A stretch of 44,015 nucleotides of DNA. It comes from a bacterium (GTDB lineage: Bacteria; Myxococcota_A; Bradymonadia; UBA7976; UBA1532). Under the pieces are notes generated by a model, which was not told the origin of the DNA, made no database searches, and worked only from the letters and a program-made list of their open reading frames with translations. Shown here piece by piece: positions 5,174 to 44,015 of this stretch. The stretch is taken from the NCBI GenBank assembly GCA_030427205.1, contig JAUHXC010000011.1, positions 1-44,015 on the forward strand, in the 5' to 3' direction. Position numbers and translations under genes: made by a program. Within the stretch, counting starts at the first letter, position 1. Every line of letters starts with the position of its first letter.

Positions 5174-5247
5174 GGGCGGCTCCCGCGGTGTGGGGTCGCC
5201 CATAGAATCAGCGGCGGGGGCCGATTTGTTCAACCGGCCCGCCGATT

Positions 5248-12559: not shown

Positions 12560-12697
12560 CCGTCCCCCTCGTTCGCGTCTCGGTGGTTCGCGTCGTATTG
12601 GTCGATTCACGCGCGGATGATGTGGTGACGGCGCGATGCGAGTCAAACGACGGGTCGGTGACGGACGCGAGGGCGCGCGGCGCCGCGCCGAACGGGG

Positions 12698-13999: not shown

Positions 14000-14059
14000 T
14001 TCGGGTGCCGGTGCAAGAAAGTCGAACGCCGCGCGGGGCGCCGTCGATCGGCGCGGTCG

Positions 14060-28281: not shown

Positions 28282-31200
28282 ATGACCCGCTCGGATCGCA
28301 TGCCCACACCCCGCGATACGATGACCCTGCGACTCGGTGAGCCGTCGCGGATCGATCCGCCCGACGCGCGCTTCTGGGTGCAGCACTGCGCGCAGCTGCA
28401 GCGGCGGGCGGCGGGCATGCGGGCGTCGGTCGAGCAGGCGCGGCTCCACGGGCAGCGGGCGTATGTGCTCGACGAGATGCTCGATGACCGCGCGGCGGCC
28501 GAAGAGGCGTGGAAGGCGGCGCTCGTGGCCCAGCCGGGTTATCTGCCCGCGCTGCTCGCCCTGCGCGATCGGGCCCTGGAGAGCGACGCCCGCAGCCTCG
28601 CCGAGACCCTGGCCGACGTGCACCTGCCGGCGCTGGCCGACAGCGAAGACGTCGACCGGCGGGACATCGCCGAGCTCGCGGCCTTCTTCGGGCTGATCTG
28701 GCTCTTCCGCTGGCCCGACGCCGACCGCGCCGCCCACGCGCTGCTGCGGCTCGAGGCGGTGGGCGATCCGCTGGGGCTGGCCGAGCGGCTGCTGCACCTG
28801 TGCCTCGACGGCGCCGGGCAGGTGACCCGGTGGCGGGCGCGCGCCGAGCGACTCGAAGGGCCCGAGCGCGCCGCGCTGCTCGCCGAGCTCGGCCGGCACC
28901 TCGTCGACGACCCCGACGTGGCCGCCGAGGGCTGGCAGCTGCTCGCCGAGGCCGCCGGGGCCGACCCTGTCGCCGGCTGGTATCGCGTCGAGCAGGCGCT
29001 GGTCATGGGCGAACCCAGCGCGTTGGCCCGGGCGCTCGAGACCCTCGCGGGCCTCTGCGAAGGGGTCGGGGCGGCCATCCTGCGATTCCTCGCCGCCGAG
29101 ATCTGGGAGCTGGTGCTGGGCCAGGTCGACAAGGCCGAAGCGCTCTACGCGCAGGTCACCGGCGGCGGCCTGCGGGCGGCCATCGCGCTCAAGCAGATCG
29201 TCAGCGACGCCCGCCAGTTCTCCGACGACCCGCTCGGCATGTCGGCCAGCCTGGCCGAGCAGGCCGACAGCATCGGCGACGCGCGCCTCGAGGCGGTGCT
29301 CTACCTGCGCGCGGCCCAGCTCGCCGCGGTGGCCAACGACAGCGCGAGGGCGCGCGACGCGGCCGGCGCGGCGCTCGAGCGCTGGCCGGAGGACGACCGC
29401 GCGCGCCATCTGGTCGAACGCATCGTCTGGCAGGCCGCCGAGTGGCACGACCTGCGGGCCCTCATCAACCGCGCCGCCGGCGGCGACATCGCCCGGCTGC
29501 TGCGGGCGGCCATCCTCGAGCACGCCGTGCAGGAGCCGGCCAGCGCCCTCGGCGCGCTCGGATCGGCGACCAGCGAGGCCCCCGAGCTGCTGCACCTGCG
29601 CACGCGGCAGCGGCTCTCGCAGCACCTCGTGGCCGGCGACGACCTGCGCGAAGCCGAGGCCCGGGTGCGGGCGTGGCAATACGAGGCCAACCTGCTCGAC
29701 GCCAGCGACCGACGGGCCGAGCTGTACCTGCGCATCGCCCGCTTCTATCTGGCCCATACGGCGCAGCACGAGAAGGCGCTGACCTACCTCTTCTGGGCCC
29801 TCGATCGCGACCCGAAGAACCTCACCGTGCTGCGCATCATCGAGCACTGCTGCCGCCAGACCGGCCGCCAAGGTCCGCTGGTGAAGGCGCTCGACCAGAC
29901 CGTCGAGCTGCTCGACCGCCCCGCCGACCGCTTCCCGCTGCGCCGTGAGCTGGCCGAGATCCAGGCCGCCGCGGGCGCGCCGACCGATACCCTCGTCGAC
30001 CTCTACCGGGCCGCGCTCGCCGAAGAGCCGACCGACGCCAGCACCCAGGCCGACCTCGAGCGGCTCTATCGCCACGCCCGGCGCCACGACGACCTCAAGG
30101 GCCTCTACGAGCAGATGCTGCGCAGCGCCGACGGCCCCGAGGCGCGGGCCTCGGTCGCGGTGCGCTTCGGCCCGCTGCTCGTCGAGCAGTTCGACGACGC
30201 GGTGGCCGCGCTGCGGCTCTACGACCGGGTCATGCCCGATACCCCCGACGGCCCGCTGCGCTCGCGGCTGGAGATGCTGCAGACCGAAGCCGCCGCCGCC
30301 GGTGGGCTCTCCGGCAGCCTGCCGGCGCTCAACACCGTCGAGATCGAAGCCCTCGAGCGCTCCTCGATGGACTTCGACTTCGGCGAGGCCGACATCGACG
30401 AGCTGCTGACGGTGGTCTCCGACCCCCGGGCCGAGTCCGATCCGGGCGAGATCGCGCCGCCGCCGCTGCCGCCGCTGCTGCCGATGGCGCCCACCGAGGT
30501 CGACAGCAAGATCCGCAGCCCGCTGCCCACCGACGAGGTCCGCGCCGCCGACGCCGTGCGGCCGGCCGATCGACCCTCGGGGCGCACCGGCCTGCTCGAC
30601 TCGGGCCGGGCCGCGGTGCCGCCGCCGCTCGACGTCGACGACGAGATCGAGTTCTTCGAATTCGAGGTGGACGAAGACGACGCCGAGCTGAACGGCTCGG
30701 TCGAGCTCTCGCCCGAAGACCTCGCCGAGGCCGGCCCGCCGCCGCCGGCGCCCATCACCGACCGCACGACCGGCTTCCTCGGCGCCGAGCGCGCCGGCGA
30801 GGGCAAGCGCGACCGCAGCCGGGCGGTCATCGCCCGCAAGCTGCGCCGCAGCCGCAACAAGCAGCCCACCGACGAGTTCGCCGACTTCGGCGAGCCGTCG
30901 CTGGTCGAAGCGGTCGAGATGTACGGCGCCGCCGAAGACTTCGATACCCGGCTGCGGGCCGTCGCCGAGCTGGCCCGGCGCTACGAGGCCGCCGGCCGAC
31001 CGCTCGAAGCCATCCGCGCGTGGCGCACCGTGCTCGGCTTCCGGGCCGGTGACGGCGAGGCCATCCGCCACCTCGAGCAGCTCTACCGCAGCACCGAAGA
31101 CTGGCGCGGGCTGGTGGAGATATTGGCCGGCGAGGCCACCCGCACCGGCGACCGGGCCCGGCGGCAGGCGCTGCTCTTGGAGGTCGCCCGGCTCGAATGG

Positions 31201-34200
31201 CGGGCGCTGGAAGACGCCGGGGCCGCGGTCAACCACTTCCTCGAAGCCCTCGACCTGGGCGTCGTCGACCGCGAGACCATCGCCGAGCTCGCCGGCGCGG
31301 TGCGCGCGGTCAAGCGCTGGCCGGCCTACGTCGACGCGCTGGCCCGGGCCGGCCTCGACGACCCGGCGCACATGAGCCCCGAGGGCGCCATCGACCTCGG
31401 CCGGGTCCACCTCTACGAGCTCAGCGACCCGGCGCGGGCGGTGCCCTACCTCGTCACCGCGGCGCGGGCGCTGCCCGAGCGGGTCGACATCGCCGCCGAC
31501 CTGGCCGAAGCCCGGGCGGGCCTGGGCGAGGTCGACCGGGCGGTGGCGCTCTTGACCCGGGCGATCCAGGCGGCCGTCGACCTCGGCCCCGACGCGCGCA
31601 ACGTGCTGCGCCTGCGCCTCGCCCGACTGTACGAAGAGCACGCCGCCGACAGCCGGGGCGCCTTGCACGTCTACCGCGACGCGCTGGCCGAGGGGCTGTC
31701 CGACCCGGCGGTACTCGACCGCGTCGACCACCTGGCCACCGCCGCCGAGGACTGGCACACCCTCGCCGCCGTGCTCGAGCGCAACCTCGAAGAGGCCCGC
31801 GGCGGCGACCCCGAAGAGGTGCGCCCGATCGCCATCCGCCAGGGCCAGCTGCTGCTCAAGCGCCTCGAGCGCCCGCGAGAGGCCGCCACCGCCTTCGTCG
31901 AAGCCTACGTGCTCGACCCGGCCGACGAAGGCGTCTTCCGGCTCGTCGAGGGCATCCTGCGCAAGCACCCCGACCCGGCGCTGCAGGCGCGGCTCTACGC
32001 CGCCTGGCTCGACGGCGGCGAGCGCAGCCTCAAAGAGCGGCTGACGATGTCGCTGCGGCTGGTGGCGGCCCACGAGGCCGAAGGCCGGCTCGACGCGGCC
32101 GCCGAAGTGCTCGAAGAGCTGCGGGCGCGCATGCCGAACGACGGCGAAGTGCTCGCCGCGCTCGAGCGGGTCTACCAGAAGGCCGGCCGCTGGGACGAGC
32201 TGGTGCAGATGTACCACCAGGCCCTCGACACCACCGGCGACCCCCAGATCCGGGGGCGCCAGCTGCGGCGGCTGGCGCGAGCGTACGAGGTCGGCCTGCG
32301 CGACCTGCCCCGGGCCACCGAGGTCTACCAGACGCTCTTCGCCGAGCAGCCCGACGATACGACCACCCTCAAGGCGCTCGCCCGACTGCTCGAAGGCCAG
32401 AAGCGCTGGGACGAGCTGCTCGAGATCAGCACCCGCGAGCTGGCGCTGACCGACAAGCCGCGGCAGAAGGCGTTCATCCACTTCCGCATGGGCAGCCTGC
32501 ACGAGTCGCAGCTCGGCGATCACGCGGCGGCCGGCGCGGCGTACCACCGCGCGCTGGAGCTCGACCCGCGCTGCTTCCCGGCGCTGCACGGCCTGCGCGA
32601 GCTGGCGGCCAACGCCGGCGACTGGCCGACGGTGGTCGCCCACCTCGGCCGCGAGCTCGAGCTGTGGGACGAACCCAAGGAGCGCGCGGCGGTGCTCTCG
32701 CGCATCGGCGAGATCTACGAGCGCCAGCTCGACGACACCGCCGAGGCCGACGCCCACTACGCCCGGGCGCTCGATACCCACGCCGGCTGCATCCCCGCCG
32801 CCCGGGCCCTCGCCCGCCGCGCGTGGCAGGCCGGCGACTGGGAGGCCGCCGCGCCGCACCTGCAGGTGCTCACCAACCAGAACCTCGACAAGCTGCCCCG
32901 CTCGACGTCGAGCAAGCTCTTCTATCGGCGCGGCGTCGTCGCCCGCAACCTGGGCCGGCAGCTCGAGGCCATCGAGAGCCTCAAGCTCGCGCTGGAGTTC
33001 GACGGCAGCAACGCCGAGGCGCTGCACGCGCTGGTCGAGACCTACGCCGGCCAGGGGACCGACGACGACGGGCTCTCGGCGCTGCTCAAGCAGCTCGCCG
33101 AGAACCGCGCGACCCACGTCGAAGCCGGGCGCATGGACGAGGTGGCCCGCATCGACGTGCTCTCGGGGCTCGCCGCCGAGCATCAGCTGCGCCTCGACGA
33201 CGCGGAGGACGCCTACCGCCGCGCCTGCGAGGCCCGCCCCGACGACCCCGACGTGCTGCGGCCGCTGATCGAGCTGCTGCTCAAGCGCCGCCTGTGGAGC
33301 GACGCCACCGCCGCGCTGCGCACCTTCGCCGACCGCTTCTTCGACGCCGCCCTCGACCGGGCCGACGCGCGGGCCGCCTGGGTCGACGCCACCTTCTGGG
33401 AGGGCGAGATCTGGTCCGACATGGCCGTCGACCCGGCCCGGGCCATCGCCTGCTACGCCGCGGTGCTCGCCGTCGACCCCGACAACCGCGAGGCCCGCTA
33501 CCGCACCGCGCAGTGCCACTACCTGATGGGCGTCTTCGACGAAGCCGCCGAGATCGTCGACGAGCTGCTGACCCACGGCGGGCTGCCCGCCGGCGAGCGG
33601 GCGCGCTACACCTTCTATCGGGGGCGTATCGAGCAGGTCGGGCTGCACGACGAGGGCGCCGCCCGCGCGCTCTACGCCGAGGCGCTGCAGGTCGACCGCC
33701 ACTGCGCCCGGGCGCTCATCGCCCTCGGCCGCAGCCTGCTCGACGCCGACGAGACCGACGGCGTCGTCGACCTGCTGCGCGAGCATCAGGCCCTCATCGA
33801 GGCCCCCGACGACGGCGACCCCGACCTGGCGGCGCTCAAGACCTTCGCCGCCGGCGTCTGGCACCGCCACGGGCAGAGCGACGTGGCCTTGCGCCTGCTC
33901 ACGCCGCTGGCCCAGGGCATCACCGCCGGCGCCCGCGACGCCCGCTTCTGCCTCGCCCGGGTGCACGAGAGCCGCGGCGGGTTCGACGCCGCCGCCGCCC
34001 AGCTCGAGCGGACCCTGGCCGACGACGTCTGCGACATCGCCGCGCTGCGGGCCCTCGCCGGGCTGCGCATGCGCCAGGGCGACGACGAGCGCGCGCTGTG
34101 GGTGCTGTCGGTGCTCGAGCTCTACGGCGCGCTGAACCCCGACGAGCGGGTGACGTGGGGCACCCTGCGCGACCGCAACCGCAAGCAGCGCGACCGCGGG

Positions 34201-35004
34201 GGCCACACCCTCGCCGACGGCGTCTTGGAGCGGGTGATGCTGCACCCGTCGTTCAAGAGCCCGCTGGTCACGCTGATGGCGTTGTGCGCCGACGACCGCC
34301 CCATCCGGCCGCCGCCCACGCTGCGCCGCGCCGAGCGGGTCAACGGCCAGCGGCACACCTTCACCCTCGAGCTCGAGGCGGTGCAGAGCCTGCTCGGCTA
34401 TCGCGACTTCGACCTCTACTTCATCGGCGACCACCCCGAGCTGGTGGCGCTGTGGCCCGCCGAGCCGCCGTTGATGGTGCTCGGCGCGCCGGCGCTCGGC
34501 GACCGCTGCACCACCGCCGAGCGCCGGTTTCTGGTGGGCCGGGCGGCGTTCTACGGCAAAGCCGGGCTGACTCGACTGCACGACGCCGGCCCCGAGCAGG
34601 CCCTCGACCGCATCGCCCGGGTCGGCGGCCTCGTCAGCCGCCGGGCCGACCTCGATCGCCGCACCGACCCGCTGCTCGCCGGCCTGCCCGACCGCGCCAT
34701 CGACACCATCGCCGAGCTGGTGCAGCGGGTGGGTGAGCACACCCTGCCGCCGCTCTACACCGGCGAGCAGGCGTTGACCGGCGTCGCGTGCACCGCCGAC
34801 CGCGCGGGCCTGCTGGCGAGCGGGTCCTTGCGGGCCGCCGTCGAGATGCTCACCCGCCACGCGGGGGTCGGCGAGACCATCGAGCGCGGCGACGACCTCG
34901 GCTGGGCGGTGCGCAGCGGGTCGCGGCTGCGCGACCTGGTCAAGTATGCTCTCTCCGACGCGTTCACCGAGCTCCGCGCCGAAGCGGGCCTCGGGATCTC
35001 GTAG
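28282..35004 (+). CDS. Giant (2240 aa) tetratricopeptide-repeat (TPR) protein with a central acidic/Pro-rich low-complexity region (aa ~690-860).
   Basis: Dozens of TPR-like 34-aa units (e.g. AYHRALELDPRCFPALHGLRELAANAGDW; ADAHYARALDTHAGCIPAARALARRAW). The minus-strand ORF 28234..35019 is an antisense artefact. Confidence 0.8.
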   Translation: MTRSDRMPTPRDTMTLRLGEPSRIDPPDARFWVQHCAQLQRRAAGMRASVEQARLHGQRAYVLDEMLDDRAAAEEAWKAALVAQPGYLPALLALRDRALESDARSLAETLADVHLPALADSEDVDRRDIAELAAFFGLIWLFRWPDADRAAHALLRLEAVGDPLGLAERLLHLCLDGAGQVTRWRARAERLEGPERAALLAELGRHLVDDPDVAAEGWQLLAEAAGADPVAGWYRVEQALVMGEPSALARALETLAGLCEGVGAAILRFLAAEIWELVLGQVDKAEALYAQVTGGGLRAAIALKQIVSDARQFSDDPLGMSASLAEQADSIGDARLEAVLYLRAAQLAAVANDSARARDAAGAALERWPEDDRARHLVERIVWQAAEWHDLRALINRAAGGDIARLLRAAILEHAVQEPASALGALGSATSEAPELLHLRTRQRLSQHLVAGDDLREAEARVRAWQYEANLLDASDRRAELYLRIARFYLAHTAQHEKALTYLFWALDRDPKNLTVLRIIEHCCRQTGRQGPLVKALDQTVELLDRPADRFPLRRELAEIQAAAGAPTDTLVDLYRAALAEEPTDASTQADLERLYRHARRHDDLKGLYEQMLRSADGPEARASVAVRFGPLLVEQFDDAVAALRLYDRVMPDTPDGPLRSRLEMLQTEAAAAGGLSGSLPALNTVEIEALERSSMDFDFGEADIDELLTVVSDPRAESDPGEIAPPPLPPLLPMAPTEVDSKIRSPLPTDEVRAADAVRPADRPSGRTGLLDSGRAAVPPPLDVDDEIEFFEFEVDEDDAELNGSVELSPEDLAEAGPPPPAPITDRTTGFLGAERAGEGKRDRSRAVIARKLRRSRNKQPTDEFADFGEPSLVEAVEMYGAAEDFDTRLRAVAELARRYEAAGRPLEAIRAWRTVLGFRAGDGEAIRHLEQLYRSTEDWRGLVEILAGEATRTGDRARRQALLLEVARLEWRALEDAGAAVNHFLEALDLGVVDRETIAELAGAVRAVKRWPAYVDALARAGLDDPAHMSPEGAIDLGRVHLYELSDPARAVPYLVTAARALPERVDIAADLAEARAGLGEVDRAVALLTRAIQAAVDLGPDARNVLRLRLARLYEEHAADSRGALHVYRDALAEGLSDPAVLDRVDHLATAAEDWHTLAAVLERNLEEARGGDPEEVRPIAIRQGQLLLKRLERPREAATAFVEAYVLDPADEGVFRLVEGILRKHPDPALQARLYAAWLDGGERSLKERLTMSLRLVAAHEAEGRLDAAAEVLEELRARMPNDGEVLAALERVYQKAGRWDELVQMYHQALDTTGDPQIRGRQLRRLARAYEVGLRDLPRATEVYQTLFAEQPDDTTTLKALARLLEGQKRWDELLEISTRELALTDKPRQKAFIHFRMGSLHESQLGDHAAAGAAYHRALELDPRCFPALHGLRELAANAGDWPTVVAHLGRELELWDEPKERAAVLSRIGEIYERQLDDTAEADAHYARALDTHAGCIPAARALARRAWQAGDWEAAAPHLQVLTNQNLDKLPRSTSSKLFYRRGVVARNLGRQLEAIESLKLALEFDGSNAEALHALVETYAGQGTDDDGLSALLKQLAENRATHVEAGRMDEVARIDVLSGLAAEHQLRLDDAEDAYRRACEARPDDPDVLRPLIELLLKRRLWSDATAALRTFADRFFDAALDRADARAAWVDATFWEGEIWSDMAVDPARAIACYAAVLAVDPDNREARYRTAQCHYLMGVFDEAAEIVDELLTHGGLPAGERARYTFYRGRIEQVGLHDEGAARALYAEALQVDRHCARALIALGRSLLDADETDGVVDLLREHQALIEAPDDGDPDLAALKTFAAGVWHRHGQSDVALRLLTPLAQGITAGARDARFCLARVHESRGGFDAAAAQLERTLADDVCDIAALRALAGLRMRQGDDERALWVLSVLELYGALNPDERVTWGTLRDRNRKQRDRGGHTLADGVLERVMLHPSFKSPLVTLMALCADDRPIRPPPTLRRAERVNGQRHTFTLELEAVQSLLGYRDFDLYFIGDHPELVALWPAEPPLMVLGAPALGDRCTTAERRFLVGRAAFYGKAGLTRLHDAGPEQALDRIARVGGLVSRRADLDRRTDPLLAGLPDRAIDTIAELVQRVGEHTLPPLYTGEQALTGVACTADRAGLLASGSLRAAVEMLTRHAGVGETIERGDDLGWAVRSGSRLRDLVKYALSDAFTELRAEAGLGIS

Positions 35005-35042
35005 GCGCAATCGGTACACGGACCCACAGACCGGCGAGCGGT

Positions 35043-35855
35043 ATGTCCAAGAAGTTCTCCCTGGGTGCCAATACGGTCGAAGACGTCACCTTCCTCAAGG
35101 TCAGCGGCGTCGTCGACGAGGACAACACCCTCGCCAAGAGCCTCAAGAAGATCGACGGCCGCACCGTGGTCATCGACCTCAGCGGGGTCGAGCGCATCAA
35201 CAGCTGCGGGGTGCGCGACTGGGTCAACTGGCTCAACGACCTCGACGCCAAGGGCAAGCGGGTCGTGCTGGTGCGCTGCAGCCCGTGCATCGTCAATCAG
35301 GTCAACCTGGTCAACAACTTCGTCGGGCGCGGCCGGGTGAAGAGCTTCTTCGCCCCCTACTTCTGCCCGCGCTGCGACACCGAGCAGCTCAAGCTCCTGC
35401 AGGTCGAAGACTTCGCCGGTATGGACCGCCCGCGGGCCCCCGACGTGCGCGGCGACGGCTGTCAGCAGGCCCGCTGCGAGATGGAGTTCGACGACCTCGA
35501 GGCGGCCTACTTCGCCTTCCTGCCGCGCAATACCGGCCAGGTGGTCGACACCGGCCTCAAGAGCCTGCTCGACGACCTCAGCCCTTCGATCCGCGACCGC
35601 ATCAAGCGGCTCGACAGCGTGCAGCAGAACGCCGACCCGGAGAAGACGCCCATCAGCGGCATGTACAGCCCGCTGACCGTCACCCGGACCCAGCTGAGCA
35701 TCAACAAAGGCGGCGCGCCGGCCGACGAGGCGCCCGAAGCGCAGACCGAGCAGGTGCGCACCCGCAGCAGCCTGGGCGTGATCCTGACCGCCGCGGCGCT
35801 GCTGCTCGTCGGCGGGCTCATCGCCTACGTCGTATTCTTCATCGGGGGGGGCTGA
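35043..35855 (+). CDS. STAS-domain (anti-sigma-factor antagonist-like) protein fused to a 4-Cys zinc-ribbon (CPRC...CQQARC) and a C-terminal TM anchor.
   Basis: STAS signature VVIDLSGVERINSCGVRDWVNWLNDL. Cys pairs in the CxxC...CxxC arrangement. C-terminal hydrophobic helix LGVILTAAALLLVGGLIAYVVFFIGG. The ORF track's upstream extension is rejected; ATG at 35043. Confidence 0.65.
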   Translation: MSKKFSLGANTVEDVTFLKVSGVVDEDNTLAKSLKKIDGRTVVIDLSGVERINSCGVRDWVNWLNDLDAKGKRVVLVRCSPCIVNQVNLVNNFVGRGRVKSFFAPYFCPRCDTEQLKLLQVEDFAGMDRPRAPDVRGDGCQQARCEMEFDDLEAAYFAFLPRNTGQVVDTGLKSLLDDLSPSIRDRIKRLDSVQQNADPEKTPISGMYSPLTVTRTQLSINKGGAPADEAPEAQTEQVRTRSSLGVILTAAALLLVGGLIAYVVFFIGGG

Positions 35856-35856
35856 G

Positions 35857-36372
35857 GTGGCCGACGATACGCTCGACCGCATCCGCGACGTGGGCGCGGT
35901 GTTCATCGACCCCTGGGTCGCCGTCGACCGCAGCGGCGAGGTGGTCGACTTCAACCCGCACTTCCGGGCCCTGCACAACCGACAGAACGCCCGCAAGCTG
36001 CAGGGCAGCCCGCTGTCGACCTACGTGCACCTCGACCTGCCCGTCGACCCCGTCGCGCAGTGCCTCGAAGAGGGCAAGCCGGTGCGCTACGACGAGATCC
36101 AGGTCACCATCGAAGGCGAAGAGGCCGCCCGGCCGTTCATCATCAGCGCCGCGCCCGTCGGCAGCGGCCACGTGCTGCTGCTGCTGCGCGACGTCTCCGA
36201 CGCCGCCGCCGTGCAGCGCAAATACAAGACGATGCTCGACCGCGAGACCAAGGAGAAAGAGCGCCTGCAGGACGAGATCGGCCGCAAGACCAAAGAGCTC
36301 GTCGACACCAACATGGAGCTCAACCGCACCCAGAAAGAGCTGATGCGGTTCAAGAAGGGGCTCTTCGGCTGA
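35857..36372 (+). CDS. Small PAS-like sensor domain protein with a C-terminal coiled coil.
   Basis: PAS-like fold pattern (GAVFIDPWVAVDRSGEVVDFNPHFRAL...); charged heptad-rich tail. GTG start 1 nt after the upstream stop, and its stop overlaps the next start (TGATG). Confidence 0.5.
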   Translation: MADDTLDRIRDVGAVFIDPWVAVDRSGEVVDFNPHFRALHNRQNARKLQGSPLSTYVHLDLPVDPVAQCLEEGKPVRYDEIQVTIEGEEAARPFIISAAPVGSGHVLLLLRDVSDAAAVQRKYKTMLDRETKEKERLQDEIGRKTKELVDTNMELNRTQKELMRFKKGLFG

Positions 36373-37940
36373 TGCTCAAGTCGCTCAACAGCCTGCCCAT
36401 CAGCTTCAAGCTGATGATCACCACGACGCTGCTCCTGCTCTTCACCGTGGGCCTCTATGGCGCGATGAACGTGCAGAACCTGGGCGCGGCCTACGACGAC
36501 TCCCGCCGCGACCAGGAGGAGCTGACCCTGCAGGCGGCGACCCAGAGCGCGCGCAACGTCACCACCCTGCTCGCGTTCTCCGCCCGCTCGTTCATCGCCG
36601 CGACCGCCTACGGCGACATCCAGAACCTGCTCGACACCCTCACCGAAGACGACCCGCGGCTGGTCTACGCCCGGGTGTACGACGGCGACACCCCGGTGGC
36701 CACCCAGGGCGACCCCGACAAGGCGCTGGCCAATACCCAGCGCTTCGCCGACGCCCGGGTCGAGACCACCAAAGGCGTCGAGGTGCTCACCCGCGACGGC
36801 GAGCTGCACATGGTGCGGGTCGAGGTGCCCTTCGAAGGCGCCGAGGGCAAGGTGGAGATCGGCCGCTCGATCGCCGAGATCAACGAGCACAACGCGCGCA
36901 TCCGCGAGGCCACCGCCAAGAGCCGCAAGGCGGCGACCATCAACGCGCTGTTCGTCGGCGGCATGATCATCCTGCTCGGGGTGGTGCTCAACATCCTGCA
37001 GGCCCTGCGCATCAGCCGGCCCATCCGCGAGCTGACCGACAGCGTCGAGCGCATCGCCCACGGCGACCTCGGCGAGCGGGCGGTGGTCGACAGCACCGAC
37101 GAGATCGGCGTGCTCGGGCGCAACTTCAACTACATGGCCGAGCGGCTCGGCATCCTCATCAAAGAGACCGAAGAGCGGGCGACCTACGAGAAGGAGATGG
37201 AGGTCGCCCGCATCATCCAGGAGTCGCTGCTGCCGCCCAACCGGCTGATCACCCGCGGCGACTTCCAGTTCGCCGGCTTCTTCAAGAGCGCGAGCATCTG
37301 CGGCGGCGACTGGTGGAACTTCGCCGAGATCAGCGACGGCCGGCTCTTGCTGCTCATCGGCGACGTGACCGGCCACGGCGTCTCGTCGGCGATGATCACC
37401 GCCGCCGCCAAGTCGTGCTGCGATACCCTGCGCCACGTCACCGAAGGCGAGCTGACGGTCACCTTCCTGCTCGAAGAGCTCAACAAGACCATCTACGAGG
37501 CCGCCAACCGCCGCTTCGTGATGACCTTCTTCGCCACCATCATCGACCCCGCCGAGCGCACGCTGACCTTCAGCAACGCCGGCCACAACTTCCCGCTGCT
37601 CTTCCGGGCCAACCCCGCCGACGGCGAGCCGGCCATCGTGCCGCTCATCACCCGCGGCAACCGGCTGGGCGACGTGATGGACAGCCGCTTCCTCGAGCGC
37701 ACCGTGCCCTACGGCAAGGACGACGTCATCGTCTGGTACACCGACGGCATCACCGAGGGCCTGGGCAAGACCGGCGACGAGTACGGCGAGAAGCGCTTCC
37801 GGCGCAGCATCCGCTCGGCCCTCGACCGCCCCGCCGACCAGATCCTCGACAAGATCCTGGGCGACGCCGAGGCCTACTTCGCCGACTTCGCGCACCCCGA
37901 GGACGACATCACCCTCGTCGTGGGCCGCTTCACCGGCTGA
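36372..37940 (+). CDS. Membrane sensor Ser/Thr phosphatase of the PP2C/SpoIIE (RsbU-like) family: TM - periplasmic domain - TM - HAMP - PP2C.
   Basis: HAMP (ISRPIRELTDSVERIAHGDLGERAVVDSTDEIGVLGRNFNYMAERL) and SpoIIE/PP2C motifs (GGDWW, GDVTGHGVSSAM, YTDGITE, DDITLVVGRF). The ORF track's upstream extension is rejected; ATG at 36372. Confidence 0.8.
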   Translation: MLKSLNSLPISFKLMITTTLLLLFTVGLYGAMNVQNLGAAYDDSRRDQEELTLQAATQSARNVTTLLAFSARSFIAATAYGDIQNLLDTLTEDDPRLVYARVYDGDTPVATQGDPDKALANTQRFADARVETTKGVEVLTRDGELHMVRVEVPFEGAEGKVEIGRSIAEINEHNARIREATAKSRKAATINALFVGGMIILLGVVLNILQALRISRPIRELTDSVERIAHGDLGERAVVDSTDEIGVLGRNFNYMAERLGILIKETEERATYEKEMEVARIIQESLLPPNRLITRGDFQFAGFFKSASICGGDWWNFAEISDGRLLLLIGDVTGHGVSSAMITAAAKSCCDTLRHVTEGELTVTFLLEELNKTIYEAANRRFVMTFFATIIDPAERTLTFSNAGHNFPLLFRANPADGEPAIVPLITRGNRLGDVMDSRFLERTVPYGKDDVIVWYTDGITEGLGKTGDEYGEKRFRRSIRSALDRPADQILDKILGDAEAYFADFAHPEDDITLVVGRFTG

Positions 37941-37956
37941 AGACGCGCAACCGGCC

Positions 37957-39120
37957 TCAACGCCCTGGCATGACCGGCACGCAGACGCCCGCTTCACAGC
38001 GTCCGCTCGCCCCACAGTCGTCGTCGACGACGCACTCGGACGGCGGCGGCATCGCGGGGCACGGCCCGTCGACGAACTCGAGCACCCAATCCCCCGCGTC
38101 GCCCCGGAAGCCGTCGACGAAGACGAAGTAGGTCACCCCCGCCGCGGCCATCACCCGCACCTGGGCCTGGAACGGGTCGCGGCCGAAGCCGTCGTCCCGG
38201 CAGACCACCTCCGACGCCGGATCGGCGCATGCGGTGCGCACGTGCAGCACGCTGTCATAGGCCGAGCCCATGGTGCTCAGGCAGACGTCGGCGTCGCGGT
38301 CCAGCTCGAAGCGCAGGGCCACCTCGGGCGCGTCGGCCCCGTCCGCGCAGCGCGCGCCGACCTCGTCCGCCGCGCCGCGGGTCGTGCCGCGATATACACC
38401 GAACGCCGGCATCGGCCGCGGATCGATACACGCCTGCGGGCCCGGATCGGGTACGCAGCGCCCATCCTCGCAGAGCTCGCCCGGCGGGCAGTCGACGTCC
38501 GCGGCGCACGCCGCCGGCTCGCAGGCGCCCGCGGCGCACACCTCGCCCACCGGGCAGCCGGCGTCGTCGAGGCAATCCGGCGCACCGCACGCCCCATCGC
38601 GGCAGATCGTACCGTCGGGGCACTCGACGTCGTCGACGCAGCCCGGCTCGACGCACGCCCCATCGCGACAGAGCGCCGCGCCGGGACACGGCGTATCGGG
38701 GCCGCACTCGGGCGGATCGACACAGCGCTGCGCCCGGCAGACGAGCGCGTCGGGGCAGTCGGCGTCCACCCGACAGCCCGAGCGCAGGCAGCGCCCGTCG
38801 CGGCAGATCGCGCCGTCGTCGCAGTCGGTGTCCATCACGCACCCGTCGGGCGGCGCACAGCGCCCGTCGCGACAGACCTCGGGGTCGACGCACGGCGGCC
38901 CGTCGCCGCACATCGGCGCGGCGCCGTCCACAACCGCGTCGACCACAGCACCGTCCACAACGGCGCCGTCCGGCTCGATGTCCGGCGCGTCCGCATCGGC
39001 CGGCGCGGCGCCCGACGCCATGTCGACCTGCGGCGGAGCGTCGTCGCCCGCTCCAGCGTCGCATCCGCTCGCCGCCAGCAGCAGCGCGATCCACAGGGTT
39101 TTCGCCCGGCCCATGCTCAC
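37957..39120 (-). CDS. Lipoprotein with ~9 myxobacterial-type Cys-rich repeats (DCPDGxxCRDGxC) and a C-terminal beta-sandwich (PPC-like) domain.
   Basis: Lipobox LLLAASGC. Regular C-x4-C-x-DG-x-C periodicity. Confidence 0.7.
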   Translation of the reverse strand: MSMGRAKTLWIALLLAASGCDAGAGDDAPPQVDMASGAAPADADAPDIEPDGAVVDGAVVDAVVDGAAPMCGDGPPCVDPEVCRDGRCAPPDGCVMDTDCDDGAICRDGRCLRSGCRVDADCPDALVCRAQRCVDPPECGPDTPCPGAALCRDGACVEPGCVDDVECPDGTICRDGACGAPDCLDDAGCPVGEVCAAGACEPAACAADVDCPPGELCEDGRCVPDPGPQACIDPRPMPAFGVYRGTTRGAADEVGARCADGADAPEVALRFELDRDADVCLSTMGSAYDSVLHVRTACADPASEVVCRDDGFGRDPFQAQVRVMAAAGVTYFVFVDGFRGDAGDWVLEFVDGPCPAMPPPSECVVDDDCGASGRCEAGVCVPVMPGR

Positions 39121-39226: not shown

Positions 39227-41764
39227 ATGCCGACGCGCCTCCGCCCCCATCTGCGACGTGTACCGACCGCGATCGCCTCTCTGGGCCTCGGGGCGGCCCT
39301 CTGCGGGCCGATCGTGTTCGACCCGGCACCGGTATACGCCCAAGGGCGATACCAGGCCCAGGGCGCCGCCCAGCGGCACTTCCAGGACGGCGAGCAGGCC
39401 CTGGCCGAAGCCGAAGAGGCCCGCGAGGACGGCGACGACGCCGAGGCCCGCGGCCACTTCGGCGACGCGATCGACGCCTTCGAGAAGGCCATCGACGTCG
39501 ACCCGGATTACGTCGACGCCTACGCCCGCCTGGGCCGGGTGCTCTACGACCTCGACCGCCCGGCCGCCGCCATCCCGGTGCTCGAAGCGGGCCTCGCCCG
39601 CGCCGCCGACAGCGAGGAGATCAAGTTCTGGCTGGGCCAGCACCTGCTGCGGGCGGCGCAGGCCGCGAACGCCGACGAGGCCGCCCGCGGTCGGGTCTCC
39701 GAGGCGATCACGCTGCTCGAGGGCGTCGCGAGCGGCAGCGACCGGTTCCCCGAGGTGCACCTCGTCCTCGGCAATCACTACTACGACAAGGGGCGCTTCG
39801 ACCGATCGAGCGCCGCCTACGGGCGCTACCTCGAAGAGCGCCCCGACGCCATCCAGGCCCGCGCGCGGCTGGGCAACGCCCTCGTGCGCCAGGAGCGCTT
39901 CGAAGAGGCGTTGACCGCCTTCGAGCGGGTGCGCGAGGCCGACCCGGACAACGTGGCGGTGCTGGTCAACATCGGCACCGCGCACCTGCGGCTGGCCCGC
40001 TACGACGCCGCGGCGAAGACCCTCGAAGCGGCGCTGGAGCGGGACGGCGATCGGGAGAGCGCGCGCTTCGGGCTGGCCTATGCCCACTTCGCCGCCGCGC
40101 GCCACGCCGAGGCAAAGCCGCACTTCGCCCGCTTCGTCTCCAAGAGCCCCGACAGCTTCAACGGCCGCTACTTCGGCGGCTCGGCGCTGATGGCCCTCGG
40201 CGACGACGACGCCGCGCTGCCCGAGCTGACCCGGGCCGCCGAGCTGCGCCCCGACGTGGCCCAGCCGCACTACAAGATCGGCATCATCCACCTGCGCAAC
40301 GGCCGCACCGACGCCGCCCGCACGGCGCTGAAGGCCGCCGAGGCGATCAAGCCGCAGAACCCGTGGGTGCTCTCGGCGCTGGGCACCGCCGAGCGGCAGC
40401 AGGGGCGCCTGCCCGAGGCGCTGGCCCTGCACCAGCAGGCGGTCGAGCAGGCCTCGACCTTCGAGAAGGGCGCGCGCATGGCCCGGCTGCACGCGACGCT
40501 CGCCCGCACCGCCGAGGCCGCCGGCCAGCTCGATCTCGCGCGCAAGACGATCGCCGCCGCCCTCGACGGCGGCGCCGACGACCCGTGGGTCGCGCAGTCG
40601 GCGCGCGCGGTCCTGACCCGGCTCGCGCGGCGCAGCGCCGAAGCGGGCGACCTCGAGCGCGCCCGCGAGGACTGGCGCCGGGCGCTGGCCCTCGCCCCCG
40701 ACGATCCGACGCTGCGCGCCGGCCTCGCCGCGCTCGACGCGGCCGCCGGCAAGCCGCAGGACGCCCTGAAGCGGGTGCAGTCGATCGCCCAGCGTGATCT
40801 GGCCGCGGTGAAGGCCGCCACCGCGCGGGCCCGCTTCGGCGCGGGTCAATACGCCGAGGCCGCCCGGGCCTACGCCGAGGTGGACGACCCGGCCATCGCC
40901 GCCGCCGGCGCGGGCGCTGCGCTGCTCGGCGCCGCGATCGACGATCCGACGCAGATCGACGCGGCGGTCGAGCAGCTCGATCGGGCCCGCGCCCTCGCCG
41001 ACGAGGCCAAGCAGCCGGCCCCCGAGGTCCGTCGCAATCAGGCGCTGGCCCACCTGCGCAAACTCGGCGCGCGGGTCGACGGCACCGAGAGCGTGCGGCG
41101 GGCGGTGGGCAACGCCGAACATCTGCCGCCGGCGGACGCTGCGCGGGCGCACTACGCGGCGTTGGTCGTGGCCTTGCGCCGGGGCAGCGCCCGCGACGCC
41201 GAGGCCCAGCTGACCCTGATGACCCGCGCGCTGCGCGAGGCGCCCGACGGCGCCGAGGTCTTCGACCGCAAGCTGGGCCGGCGCCACGTCGACCTGCTGA
41301 CCGCCTACGTCAACGTGCTGCAGAAGAACGACGATCGGGCGCGCAAGGTGCTCGACAGCCTGCGCGAGTCGCGCCGTGGCCGCACCGAGGCCGGCCAGCT
41401 GATGCGCATCGTGCAGCACCGCCTGGGCCGGCAGGCGGTGATCAAGGGCGACATCAAGGCGGCGCGCAAGCACTTCGACGCGGCCCGGGCCCTGGGCGAG
41501 ACCGACGCGCTGCGCAACGATCTGGCCGTGCTCGACTGGCTGAGCGGGCGCCGCGGCGCGCAGCTCGACGTCTGGCGCGGGCTGGCCCGCAAGGTGCGCG
41601 CGGCGCGCTTCAACCACGCGGTGGCCCTCGAGGCCGCCGGGCGTCACGAAGAGGCCTGGCGAGCGTTCGTGCAGGCGGCGGAGGCCGGCGGTCCGCAGGC
41701 GCAGAAGGCCGCCGAGATCGCCGACGCCAAGCGCCGGGTCTTCGGCTTCGGAGGCGGCGAGTGA
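39227..41764 (+). CDS. Secreted TPR-repeat protein (845 aa) with an N-terminal signal peptide.
   Basis: Signal peptide then TPR units (AIDAFEKAIDVDPDYVDAYARLGRVLYDLDRPAAAIPVLEAGL...). The antisense ORF 38255..41647 is rejected. Confidence 0.75.
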   Translation: MPTRLRPHLRRVPTAIASLGLGAALCGPIVFDPAPVYAQGRYQAQGAAQRHFQDGEQALAEAEEAREDGDDAEARGHFGDAIDAFEKAIDVDPDYVDAYARLGRVLYDLDRPAAAIPVLEAGLARAADSEEIKFWLGQHLLRAAQAANADEAARGRVSEAITLLEGVASGSDRFPEVHLVLGNHYYDKGRFDRSSAAYGRYLEERPDAIQARARLGNALVRQERFEEALTAFERVREADPDNVAVLVNIGTAHLRLARYDAAAKTLEAALERDGDRESARFGLAYAHFAAARHAEAKPHFARFVSKSPDSFNGRYFGGSALMALGDDDAALPELTRAAELRPDVAQPHYKIGIIHLRNGRTDAARTALKAAEAIKPQNPWVLSALGTAERQQGRLPEALALHQQAVEQASTFEKGARMARLHATLARTAEAAGQLDLARKTIAAALDGGADDPWVAQSARAVLTRLARRSAEAGDLERAREDWRRALALAPDDPTLRAGLAALDAAAGKPQDALKRVQSIAQRDLAAVKAATARARFGAGQYAEAARAYAEVDDPAIAAAGAGAALLGAAIDDPTQIDAAVEQLDRARALADEAKQPAPEVRRNQALAHLRKLGARVDGTESVRRAVGNAEHLPPADAARAHYAALVVALRRGSARDAEAQLTLMTRALREAPDGAEVFDRKLGRRHVDLLTAYVNVLQKNDDRARKVLDSLRESRRGRTEAGQLMRIVQHRLGRQAVIKGDIKAARKHFDAARALGETDALRNDLAVLDWLSGRRGAQLDVWRGLARKVRAARFNHAVALEAAGRHEEAWRAFVQAAEAGGPQAQKAAEIADAKRRVFGFGGGE

Positions 41765-42717
41765 GCAGGCTGCGCCCGATGATCGCCCGGTGGCTCTGCG
41801 TCGCGTGGCTCTGCGCCGCGTGCGCGCTGGGTACGCTGTGGGCCCCGCCGGCGGCGGCGCAGACCGCCGACGACGGCCAGACCCTGGTGGTCGGGGTCTA
41901 CGCCCCGCACATGTACTTCGCCAACTCCATCGCCCGCAGCGAGTACGCCGAGCAGCTCGCCGCCGGCCTGGGCCGGGTCACCGGTCTGAGCTTCCGCGGT
42001 CGCGGCTTCAGCACCCAGGGCGAGTTCGCCAATCAGGTCGCCGCAGGCCAGCTGCACTTCGCGCTCGTCGACGCGCAGCATCAGATCGAGCGGGGCTACG
42101 AGGCCCTGGCGCAAGGCACGTTCAACGGGCGGCCGACCCTGCCGATGGTGCTGGTGGCCGGCTCGGGTTCGAGCGTGGCCGATCTGGCCGGCAAGGGCCT
42201 CGCCCGGGTCAAGCTCGGCCGCGGCGACGAGGGCTTCATCGTCAACTTCCTGCTGCAGAATCAGGTCGAGCCCGACTTCTTCGGTCAGGCCCGCACCGTG
42301 CGCGACGTGCAGGGCGCGCTCTCGCTGGTCAAGCTGGGCAAGGCCGACGGCGCGTTCGTCTACAAGGGCATCGCGCCGGGCATCTTCACCAGCCGCCCGG
42401 TGCCGCTGCCGGTCTTCGTGCGCACCGCCACCGTGCCGGCCGGCGTCGAGCAGAAGGTGCGTCAAGCGGTGCTCGGCCTGACGGTGCCCAGCCGTGTCGT
42501 GCGCGGCTTCAGCGCCTATCGGGCCGACATCCACAAGGGGCTGCGCGGCGCGCTGCGGGCCAAGCCCCGCGGCCCGGGCAACCGCCCGGTGCTCAGCCGC
42601 GGGGGTCTCGACCTGCCGCGCATCGCCGCGGCGCTCGTCGTGGGCGATACGCCGCCGCAGCTGCCGCCGGTCGCCGGCGAGCTGCCCACCACCGACCCGC
42701 CGCCCGATCTGTATTGA
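41761..42717 (+). CDS. Secreted periplasmic substrate-binding-like protein (PhnD/SsuA-type fold suspected), translationally coupled to the upstream TPR gene.
   Basis: Signal peptide WLCVAWLCAACALGTLWAPPAAAQ. GTG start overlapping the upstream TGA (GTGA). Family assignment is tentative. Confidence 0.45.
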   Translation: MSRLRPMIARWLCVAWLCAACALGTLWAPPAAAQTADDGQTLVVGVYAPHMYFANSIARSEYAEQLAAGLGRVTGLSFRGRGFSTQGEFANQVAAGQLHFALVDAQHQIERGYEALAQGTFNGRPTLPMVLVAGSGSSVADLAGKGLARVKLGRGDEGFIVNFLLQNQVEPDFFGQARTVRDVQGALSLVKLGKADGAFVYKGIAPGIFTSRPVPLPVFVRTATVPAGVEQKVRQAVLGLTVPSRVVRGFSAYRADIHKGLRGALRAKPRGPGNRPVLSRGGLDLPRIAAALVVGDTPPQLPPVAGELPTTDPPPDLY

Positions 42718-42727
42718 GGGGCTCTGC

Positions 42728-43696
42728 TTGAGCGCACATACCCCCCGCATCCTGCTCTTCGGCGAAGAGCTGCGCCTGCGCGCCACCCGCCGGGTCGCGG
42801 TCTGCTTCGGCGGGCAGGTGACGCTCGAAGAAGACCCCGGCCGCGTCGTGGCGCGGGCGGCGGGCTTCGACCCGCACATCGTCGTCTTCGACCTCGACCA
42901 CGCCGGCCCCGCGGCGCTGAGCCTGGCGCAGCAGGTCGCCGACGCGTCGCCCGGCGGCCAGATGGTCATCGTCTGCCACCCGTCGCCGCCCGATCAGATC
43001 GAGGCGCTGCTCGGCAAGCCGTGGTTCGGGCATCTGCTCGGGCTCGAGAGCCCGTGGTTCATGGAGGAGATGGGGGCCACCCTCGCCCGGCTCAGCGGCG
43101 AGGCCCTCTTCGGGCTACATCGCCACCTGCCGTGGGGATCGCGGGTGCTGTCGACCACGGTGACCTCGAGCGCGCAGAAGGCGGCGCTCTTCGATCGGAT
43201 CGAGTCGTACATGGCCGACATCGGCGTGCGCGGGCGGCTGGTGCGGCGGCTGCACGACGTGGCCGACGAGATGCTGATGAACGCGGTCTACGACGCGCCG
43301 ACCGATCGGGCGACCGGCGAGCACATCTACGCCGCCCTGCCGCGCACGACCCGGGTCGACCTGCCGCCGGGCAGCCGCCCGGTCTTCAGCTACGGCAGCG
43401 ACGGCAAGGTCTTCGCGCTGAGCATCAGCGATCCGTTCGGCGGGCTGACCCCCGACATCCTCAAGCGCTACATCGCCAAGGGCTTGCGTCGAGGCAACGA
43501 CCAGATCGACGACAAGGCGGGCGGGGCCGGGCTGGGGCTGTACTTCCTCTTCCAGAGCCTCAACAGCCTGACGCTGTACCTCGAGCCGGGCGCGCGCACC
43601 GAGATGGTGGGGCTCGTCGACATCCGGGGCAGCTTCCGCGACGTCTTGCAGAGCCCGAAGGCGCTCAACATCTACGTGCGCCCGGCCGGCGCGTGA
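42728..43696 (+). CDS. Receiver-like (REC-like) N-terminal domain fused to a GHKL/HATPase_c ATPase of the RsbW/SpoIIAB anti-sigma Ser kinase type; no HisKA domain.
   Basis: TTG start with a GAGGGG RBS 7 nt upstream. N-box EMLMNAVYDA, G1 SDPFGG and G2 GGAGLGLYFLF are present. The N-terminus has a CheY-like strand/helix pattern (RILLFGEE...VVFDLD) but the phospho-acceptor is unverified. Confidence 0.5.
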   Translation: MSAHTPRILLFGEELRLRATRRVAVCFGGQVTLEEDPGRVVARAAGFDPHIVVFDLDHAGPAALSLAQQVADASPGGQMVIVCHPSPPDQIEALLGKPWFGHLLGLESPWFMEEMGATLARLSGEALFGLHRHLPWGSRVLSTTVTSSAQKAALFDRIESYMADIGVRGRLVRRLHDVADEMLMNAVYDAPTDRATGEHIYAALPRTTRVDLPPGSRPVFSYGSDGKVFALSISDPFGGLTPDILKRYIAKGLRRGNDQIDDKAGGAGLGLYFLFQSLNSLTLYLEPGARTEMVGLVDIRGSFRDVLQSPKALNIYVRPAGA

Positions 43697-43706
43697 GGGA
43701 GATCCG

Positions 43707-44015
43707 ATGAGCCAGGTGGTGGTGGTCGATCGCATCGAAGGCGAGACCGCGGTGCTCTCGCCGGTGGCCGGCGGGCCGCCGTTCGACTGTCCGCTGGCGT
43801 GGCTGCCCGAGACGCTGGCCGAGGGCGCGACCCTGCGCCTCGCGCGGGTCCCCGAGGCGGGCATCGCCCGGCTCAAGAAGGTCGACGAAGCCGGGGTGGT
43901 CATCGCCCTGCCCGACGGCAGCACCCTCGGCCTGCGCCCCGAGCTGCTGCCGCCCGGCTTGTCGGAGGGCGAGGCGCTGGCCTTCGTCGAGGCCCCCGAC
44001 GTCGAGAACCAGCGC
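43707..44015 (+). CDS. DUF3006-like small protein, partial (3' end truncated by the window).
   Basis: GAGGGAG RBS 6 nt upstream of the ATG. N-terminal VVVDRIEGETAVL pattern typical of DUF3006. Confidence 0.4.
   Translation, partial: MSQVVVVDRIEGETAVLSPVAGGPPFDCPLAWLPETLAEGATLRLARVPEAGIARLKKVDEAGVVIALPDGSTLGLRPELLPPGLSEGEALAFVEAPDVENQR

Follow-up and report, generated by a model that had tools for sequence, protein, structure and literature searches.

Partner switching is a textbook mode of bacterial regulation, known mostly with soluble antagonists and sigma-factor outputs. The SpoIIAA/SpoIIAB/SpoIIE and RsbV/RsbW/RsbU modules of Bacillus combine a STAS antagonist, whose serine lies at the amino terminus of helix alpha2, with a small GHKL serine kinase bearing N, G1 and G2 boxes and a SpoIIE-family PP2C phosphatase. 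In Chlamydia, RsbU spans the membrane and bears a periplasmic sensor domain, and the paralogous antagonists are plain soluble STAS proteins. SypE and HsbR are multidomain proteins made of a receiver, an RsbW-like kinase and a PP2C domain; their STAS partner is a single-domain protein and their output is not a sigma factor. These STAS partners are SypA in Vibrio fischeri and HsbA in Pseudomonas aeruginosa (PMC10120452, PMC4517449). SiaA, the phosphatase of the P. aeruginosa SiaABCD system, has two transmembrane (TM) segments, a HAMP domain and a PP2C domain (PMC7647112, PMC8457831). The cluster studied here lies in a stretch of 44,015 nucleotides (nt), called the window throughout, from a bacterium of the Bradymonadia (GenBank assembly GCA_030427205.1, contig JAUHXC010000011.1, positions 1 to 44,015). 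On the basis of its sequences and of structural models we favour, with some confidence, the reading that it is an uncharacterised Myxococcota cluster encoding a phospho-serine switch of the partner-switching type, which would be localised at the membrane and independent of sigma factors.

An earlier note on this DNA had described positions 35043-37940 as a compact three-gene operon encoding a membrane-anchored zinc-ribbon STAS protein, a PAS protein and a HAMP-PP2C sensor phosphatase, with abutting or overlapping stop and start codons. Both junctions read exactly as described: the TGA of the STAS gene (35853-35855) is separated by one base from the GTG of the PAS gene (35857-35859), and in the TGATG at 36370-36374 the PAS stop (36370-36372) and the phosphatase start (36372-36374) share one base. 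The three genes are nevertheless merely the core of a larger conserved cluster starting at 28282, whose genes are listed here together with two neighbours.

28282-35004, plus strand: giant TPR gene (2240 residues; Pfam TPR families)
35043-35855, plus strand: gene for the STAS protein with zinc ribbon and TM anchor, STAS-Zn-TM (270 residues)
35857-36372, plus strand: PAS gene, GTG start (171 residues)
36372-37940, plus strand: HAMP-PP2C sensor phosphatase gene, ATG start (522 residues)
37957-39120, minus strand: gene for a Cys-rich predicted lipoprotein (387 residues)
39227-41764, plus strand: second TPR gene, with an N-terminal signal or anchor segment (845 residues)
41761-42717, plus strand: binding-protein-like gene, with a signal peptide (318 residues)
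42728-43696, plus strand: gene for a protein with a probable pseudo-receiver and a SpoIIAB/RsbW-like GHKL domain (322 residues)
43707-44015, plus strand: DUF3006 gene, truncated by the window end (Pfam DUF3006, 41.1 bits)

The products of 270, 171, 522 and 322 residues are identical in the public NCBI record, and the N-termini of the window genes agree with those of their homologues.

As in the Bacillus modules, sequences and models point to a STAS-fold antagonist with a conserved serine, a GHKL protein with intact ATP motifs and a SpoIIE/RsbU-family PP2C phosphatase; among solved structures, the window proteins match SpoIIAA, RsbV, SpoIIAB and RsbW best or nearly best. Unlike in those modules, the antagonist bears a four-cysteine (Cys4) ribbon and a tail anchor, the kinase a putative pseudo-receiver, and the phosphatase is a two-TM HAMP sensor, while the giant TPR protein, the PAS protein and the predicted periplasmic TPR and binding proteins have no Bacillus counterpart.

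The STAS protein scores 22.9 bits against Pfam STAS (cut-off 22.6) and 26.3 bits against STAS_2. Its AlphaFold2 model (68 homologues) has a mean pLDDT of 80, above 85 for residues 1-140, and a SpoIIAA/RsbV-like fold; SpoIIAA, RsbV and TM1442 are the best structural matches, and further matches include MlaB and SLC26 STAS folds. The protein is organised as follows.

Residues 1-100: STAS core
35202-35204, plus strand: AGC codon of Ser54, the predicted phospho-acceptor, first residue of helix 54-69
35343-35522, plus strand: Cys4 zinc-ribbon extension (residues 101-160), placed by the secondary structure of the model and by Cys conservation
Residues 170-192: conserved helix
Residues 196-236: disordered linker
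Residues 243-267: tail-anchor TM helix

Whether the STAS domain has a phosphorylatable Ser or Thr was a check that the earlier note had proposed, and Ser54 provides the candidate: it occupies the SpoIIAA phospho-position in 68/68 orthologues, within a block (R51-I-N-S-C-G-V-R-D-W-V-N-W63) that is itself invariant in the same 68 sequences. In the family profile alignment it falls on the Ser of 'MDSAG' in TM1442, and from our own alignment we take it to be the equivalent of B. subtilis SpoIIAA Ser58. The canonical STAS 'G-x-x-D' motif is likewise invariant (G22, D25), and Ser54 is retained both in paralogues of about 160 residues (28-45% identity) and in every fusion protein read.

The cysteines of the extension are equally constant. 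C108xxC111 (codons 35364-35366 and 35373-35375) forms the turn of beta-hairpin 101-120, and a second knuckle, C140x4C145 (codons 35460-35462 and 35475-35477), is followed by strand 146-149 and an invariant F-D-D. Both pairs are present in 68/68 sequences; the spacing of the second is Cx4-8C in the clade of the window protein and CxxC in the Polyangia-type clade. The zinc ribbon of the earlier note is thus conserved as a Cys4 motif, but the second pair of the window protein is not the CxxC that had been given; judging from the paralogues, CxxC...CxxC is the ancestral form. The paralogue ribbon gives weak matches to Zn_ribbon_SprT and Desulfoferrodoxin_N. None of the solved STAS structures aligns past about 105 residues of the STAS-Zn protein, so the ribbon is an addition to the STAS fold. 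A further pair in the STAS core, C79xxC82, is not conserved as such, C82 being Cys in 32/68 sequences.

Two cysteines are specific to the tail-anchored clade. Cys55 (35205-35207), adjoining the predicted phospho-acceptor Ser54, does not vary within that clade, and Cys79 (35277-35279) is present in 64/68 sequences; neither is conserved among the soluble paralogues. Together they could make up a redox or metal site peculiar to this clade, close to the surface on which phosphorylation is predicted.

The C-terminal anchor that had been proposed for the STAS protein agrees with its hydropathy profile, which has a single hydrophobic segment, at the C-terminus (residues 241-270). The anchor helix is preceded by a basic R-T-R and followed by just three residues (GGG), and by the positive-inside rule we infer that the STAS-Zn domain is cytoplasmic.

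The product of 42728-43696, which the earlier note had proposed as the candidate kinase, reaches only 18.6 bits against Pfam HATPase_c, below the cut-off. Its AlphaFold2 model (pLDDT 94, pTM 0.92) comprises an N-terminal domain that superposes on receiver domains and a C-terminal domain that superposes on SpoIIAB (1til_E, TM score 0.79; also 1l0o and 1th8) and RsbW (6m37, 6m36). Forty-six homologues, down to 24% identity, share an invariant ExxxN N box (E181, N185), G1 box (D235, G238) and G2 box (G265-G-A-G-L-G270). The columns conserved in these homologues include no acidic residue from the receiver-like domain, which is therefore probably a pseudo-receiver. The protein has no signal-like N-terminus. 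From these features and from the ties to the STAS family given below, neighbourhood and fusions, we predict, in line with the earlier proposal, that the GHKL protein binds the STAS protein and is its cognate serine kinase. A receiver-type domain joined to an RsbW-like kinase recalls SypE/SypA and HsbR/HsbA; unlike in SypE and HsbR, the receiver-like domain here is without a conserved acidic residue, and kinase and phosphatase are separate proteins.

Hydropathy, Pfam scores (HAMP 59.5 bits, SpoIIE 127.6 bits) and catalytic motifs agree with the two-TM HAMP sensor phosphatase of the earlier note. Its regions are the following.

Residues ~10-32: TM1
Residues ~33-189: outside domain (~155 residues)
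Residues ~186-216: TM2
Residues 211-259 (37002-37148): HAMP domain
Residues 321-520 (37332-37931): SpoIIE-type PP2C domain

In orthologues, sCache or dCache matches fall in the outside domain. The GGD, DxxGHG, TDG and DDIT motifs align to the SiaA PP2C domain and to Rv1364c, and the nearest solved relative is 6K4E, the PP2C domain of P. aeruginosa SiaA (PMC7647112). SiaA is also the best NCBIfam match (NF038263), at 71.7 bits versus an equivalog cut-off of 700 and over the HAMP and PP2C parts only. The cluster resembles SiaABCD in having a two-TM HAMP PP2C phosphatase and in the predicted layout of a sigma-independent kinase/phosphatase/partner switch, but the low score and the lack, in the cluster, of a DUF1987 (SiaC) partner and of a GGDEF cyclase (SiaD) rule it out as a SiaABCD orthologue. 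A membrane-anchored STAS protein and a phosphatase that acts as a membrane sensor set the cluster apart from SypE/SypA and HsbR/HsbA. A survey of the myxobacterial phosphatome goes no further than listing a HAMP-SpoIIE orthologue group, sce8427/MXAN_4562/adeh0917 (PMC2887360).

The PAS protein is small and cytoplasmic, with a C-terminal coiled-coil or signalling helix, and scores 24.1 bits against PAS_4 (cut-off 23.1). Over 111 residues it is 35% identical (E 5e-16) to the PAS domain and linker helix of a histidine kinase of a Polyangia-type cluster (L024, 17606-18943). The alignment stops near the start of HisKA, and the PAS protein therefore looks like a kinase-less sensor module.

The conservation of the neighbourhood was assessed by tblastn with the window proteins over 82 loci (E <= 1e-5), which makes all counts lower bounds. 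In 57/68 eligible loci a giant TPR gene ends upstream of the STAS gene at a distance of no more than 1.7 kb; the gap between tblastn match ends has a median of 211 nt (38 nt from stop to start in the window). A PAS gene is found within 2 kb downstream, on either strand, in 46 of 67 loci (same strand in 21), and a HAMP-PP2C gene within 6 kb downstream in 36/57. Where at least 9 kb of sequence was available on each side (36 loci), PP2C was present anywhere in 26, GHKL in 26, at least one of them in 34, and both in 18. The order in the window clade is giant TPR, STAS, PAS, PP2C, a TPR protein of about 830-850 residues directly behind the PP2C gene, binding-protein-like, GHKL; in the close relatives L084 and L087, and also in L003, the full cluster through GHKL lies on a single strand with overlapping junctions. 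In the Polyangia/Kofleriaceae clade the GHKL gene is 7-8 kb upstream, on the opposite strand and before the giant TPR gene, and a subset of these loci has TPR-PEGA and Hanks-kinase genes between the two. Some window-clade loci have a Hanks-kinase gene upstream of the giant TPR gene.

No other contextual argument for placing the GHKL gene in the module is as strong as its staying nearby despite a changed position and strand. Three unrelated signalling genes might conceivably have been packed together by chance, as such genes abound in Myxococcota genomes (PMC2887360); we regard such fortuitous adjacency as extremely improbable, since the order persists over the 82 loci, even where protein identity falls to 36-40% and where the genes have been rearranged, since stop and start codons overlap, and since fusion proteins connect the families. 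Judged by these sequence comparisons, the arrangement is far beyond chance.

The giant TPR protein, a cytoplasmic one, gives TPR families alone in Pfam (residues ~1290-1780), its C-terminal 500 residues retrieved nothing but TPR-like matches from the PDB, and hydropathy reveals neither a hydrophobic segment nor a signal-like N-terminus. Its near-constant adjacency to the STAS gene makes it the leading output candidate, and it may be a scaffold or output partner of the switch. The same adjacency, the most constant of all, suggests another explanation, in which the STAS-Zn-TM protein would serve chiefly as an adaptor or regulatory subunit, without being phosphorylated, and would tie the giant TPR protein to the inner membrane or regulate it there, in the manner of MlaB-MlaF or of SLC26 STAS domains, with PP2C and GHKL acting on other substrates. 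The MlaB and SLC26 structural matches fit this proposal, as do some loci that hold giant TPR, STAS and PAS genes with neither PP2C nor GHKL within 10 kb. On the other hand, Ser54 and the SpoIIAA-type motif are invariant even in paralogues of 160 residues that lack a TM segment, phosphorylatable antagonists head the structural matches, the GHKL family is found fused to STAS-Zn, and PP2C or GHKL accompanies the STAS gene in nearly all well-flanked loci, as counted above; we therefore hold the adaptor explanation to be rather unlikely, although it deserves consideration.

The STAS-Zn family extends well beyond the window clade. A search of about 5.8 billion proteins retrieved 1422 relatives of the STAS protein, and a scan of one genome per GTDB species placed relatives in 371 genomes, the best 80 of which are all Myxococcota (Polyangia, Nannocystaceae, Kofleriaceae, Haliangium), Bradymonadia, or metagenome-assembled genomes with broad labels ('Deltaproteobacteria', 'Proteobacteria', 'bacterium'). 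The zinc-ribbon region alone (residues 96-165) gave 204 clusters among 1.84 billion representatives, which puts the subfamily of STAS plus Cys4 ribbon at about 200 clusters at 50% identity. In almost all 204 clusters the ribbon stands at ~97-160, right after an N-terminal domain of STAS size, and we therefore consider STAS and ribbon as one composite domain. The family comes in three forms: soluble proteins of about 160 residues, tail-anchored proteins of 260-340 residues, and a few fusions. The soluble paralogues all keep I52, S54, G56, W60, C108, C111, C140, F149 and D150, and Cys143 is found in at least 90% of them. Database labels of family members are limited to 'STAS domain-containing protein' or 'anti-anti-sigma regulatory factor', and full-text literature searches turned up no description of the STAS-Zn family or of the cluster.

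Gene fusions of the Rosetta-stone type are classical evidence for a functional link. Two independent metagenomic proteins, P0334 (789 residues; hhalign probability 98.8%, E 4e-17, 278 columns) and P0354 (696 residues; hhalign probability 99.4%, E 1e-21), join a Hanks kinase, the GHKL family and STAS-Zn, and therefore argue for a functional link between GHKL and STAS. The same two proteins, together with P0346 and P0319, in which one or two STAS-Zn copies are joined directly to a Hanks kinase, raise a second explanation: Ser54 would be phosphorylated by a Hanks-type Ser/Thr kinase, the GHKL protein being a binding partner, an effector or a pseudokinase. Pkinase genes between GHKL and giant TPR in Polyangia-type loci, or upstream of giant TPR in some window-clade loci, agree with it, as does the degenerate G2 box of the GHKL domain of P0334; STAS-ELK fusions have also been noted in Sorangium (PMC2887360). 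In the window, however, no orthologous Pkinase gene adjoins the cluster, which has a LysR gene upstream, and the nearest Pkinase gene (23056-25707) is just 30% identical to the cluster-linked one; the stand-alone GHKL family, moreover, keeps E181, N185, D235, G238 and GGAGLG in its 46 sequences, which argues for a working ATP site. We consider a Hanks-type kinase of Ser54, with GHKL in another role, unlikely.

Other fusions were seen among STAS-Zn proteins. P0265 joins REC, PilZ and STAS-Zn; P0256 and P0275 are further fusions, and one type consists of two tandem STAS-Zn copies, a hydrophobic segment and a large C-terminal domain, as read by eye. In Polyangia/Kofleriaceae-type clusters, a second, soluble STAS-Zn paralogue of about 165-180 residues lies behind the binding-protein gene (L001, 20157-20666; L023, L024, L025, L028 and others). 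In L024/L088 the stop of this short paralogue overlaps the start of a PAS-HisKA-HATPase histidine kinase gene, which was seen behind the paralogue in the one locus inspected further. By analogy, the pair of long and short paralogues recalls RsbV1/RsbV2 and the paralogous antagonists of Chlamydia, where the zinc ribbon, the tether and the giant TPR partner have no equivalent. The short paralogues P0304 and P0258 gave no gene context, their contigs being too short.

No Sigma70 family member is listed within about 10 kb of the cluster in six Pfam-annotated loci of both clades, nor among the window open reading frames (ORFs) scanned, which were those supported by G+C content at third codon positions (GC3) and a few others; this is a further difference from the Bacillus modules, and the anti-sigma role implied in the earlier note finds no support. 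The output is thus probably a protein-protein interaction. A classical sigma partner switch, with the GHKL protein acting as anti-sigma factor on a sigma factor whose gene lies elsewhere, could be imagined, because SpoIIAB and RsbW, which the GHKL domain matches, are both anti-sigma factors and because the Rsb genes of Chlamydia are scattered over the genome. Besides the lack of a Sigma70 gene in the loci and ORFs just described, the extra pseudo-receiver domain and the nature of the conserved neighbours, TPR and periplasmic proteins, speak against it, and we judge it improbable. A membrane anti-sigma factor of the ZAS type (HxxxCxxC) was also ruled out, as the STAS protein has no anti-sigma or zf-HC2 match, has a STAS fold, and has its cysteines in a beta-hairpin ribbon. 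So was a stressosome (RsbR/RsbS/RsbT): the STAS domain starts at residue 1 with no N-terminal sensor domain, and its resemblance to RsbR and RsbS does not extend beyond the STAS core of about 100 residues.

Within the sigma-independent phospho-serine switch that we favour, the parts and their conservation are what the data establish, and the steps are proposed by analogy with SpoIIAA/AB/E and RsbV/W/U. The GHKL protein would bind the unphosphorylated STAS protein and phosphorylate Ser54, upon which the STAS protein would be released; the HAMP-PP2C sensor would remove the phosphate, with an activity set by its outside domain, to which the periplasmic TPR and binding proteins possibly contribute, and the PAS protein may provide a cytoplasmic input to the phosphatase. 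The phosphorylation state would then decide whether the tethered STAS protein keeps GHKL at the membrane or leaves it free for another partner, which would not be a sigma factor encoded nearby and for which the giant TPR protein is the leading candidate, as scaffold or output. Zinc ribbon and tether would supply an extra interaction surface and keep the antagonist beside the membrane phosphatase.

Several observations weigh against this reading. The Pfam scores of the STAS and PAS proteins lie at the cut-off and that of the GHKL protein for HATPase_c under it. A serine here also caps the helix at its N-terminus, so that Ser54 could be kept for structure. Within 10 kb, PP2C and GHKL are both found in only half of the well-flanked loci (18/36, a lower bound), and the STAS gene is linked most tightly to the giant TPR gene, not to the kinase. 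Hanks-type kinases are linked to the family by neighbourhood and fusion too, which makes the kinase of Ser54 ambiguous, and the G2 box of P0334 is degenerate. The one element of a partner switch missing from the parts is its output: neither a sigma factor nor a defined alternative partner was identified at the locus. Finally, all function is assigned in silico, phosphorylation, zinc binding, protein contacts and co-transcription being inferred. Taken together with the evidence above, the partner-switching-like interpretation of the earlier note is nonetheless supported by sequences and models, and the computational checks that the note had suggested all gave positive outcomes.

The cluster differs from every described system by its zinc-ribbon, tail-anchored antagonist, the pseudo-receiver of its kinase, its set of TPR, PAS and periplasmic partners and its link to Hanks kinases. 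A broader proposal, which we advance only tentatively and hold to be less likely than not, is that it forms a new envelope-to-cytoplasm signalling machine, in which a tail-anchored STAS phospho-switch would recruit or release GHKL at the inner membrane and so control a TPR scaffold of more than 2000 residues, with periplasmic, PAS and, in many lineages, Hanks-kinase inputs, and to which the Cys4 ribbon and Cys55/Cys79 could add redox or metal sensitivity. Myxococcota and Bradymonadia are known for social or predatory behaviour and for very large signalling repertoires. The STAS relatives occur in hundreds of species (371 genomes); the logic is familiar, and the function rests on analogy. If our reading is true, it would define a new STAS subfamily (the roughly 200 clusters of STAS plus Cys4 ribbon), offer a concrete testable site, Ser54, with a set of partners, and join RsbW-type and Hanks-type kinases in one pathway.

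The TPR protein of 845 residues matches many TPR families and has a hydrophobic segment at residues 12-31, and is probably periplasmic. The start of the binding-protein-like gene overlaps its stop by 4 nt, in an order conserved in relatives; the product scores 37.5 bits against Phosphonate-bd (cut-off 27) and has a signal-like segment at residues 7-29. The convergent lipoprotein gene inserted after the phosphatase gene probably divides the cluster of the window genome into two transcription units, 28282-37940 and 39227 to past 44015, with the giant TPR gene and the TPR gene at 39227 as their probable first genes. A terminator-like hairpin lies at 27723-27740, upstream of the giant TPR gene. 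The promoter and terminator scan of the window was uninformative for this high-GC genome: terminator-like sites were no more frequent than in shuffled sequence, and no promoter-like sites appeared.

The lipoprotein itself (37957-39120, minus strand) has a lipobox-like 'AASGC', six DUF7107 repeats and EB-module matches; relatives have no gene at this position, or an unrelated plus-strand gene of 269 residues. The DUF3006 gene begins 10 nt behind the GHKL gene, a position kept in the closest relatives only, and its membership in the module is uncertain. The region past the window end was seen through L084 and L087 only, where DUF3006 and then a Metal_resist/LTXXQ gene follow GHKL; this CpxP/Spy-like neighbour hints at an envelope-stress context.

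The G+C content is 0.67 at 35-38 kb and about 0.74 in the flanks. Horizontal transfer was rejected as a cause: all cluster genes have a GC3 of 0.94-0.98, and the deviation is confined to the first two codon positions, so that the dip reflects amino-acid composition. An anti-phage defence system was rejected as well, PADLOC returning only a generic TPR match. Searches of the window for tRNAs and for Rfam families at gathering score found neither.

Upstream of the cluster, 23056-25707 (minus strand) encodes a Hanks-type kinase fused to an SBP_bac_5 domain (883 residues), 2.5 kb from the giant TPR gene and separated from it by a CN-hydrolase gene and the LysR regulator gene; because of its low identity to the cluster-linked kinase found elsewhere, it is probably unrelated to the module. 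Further genes unrelated to the cluster, all on the minus strand, encode an eCIS_core-domain protein (973-2880), a MotA/ExbB-like protein (3977-5245) and a protein of 2423 residues with six lamin-tail domains (5426-12697). The last of these genes is abutted by 12698-14059, also on the minus strand, whose product has a partial Pkinase domain.

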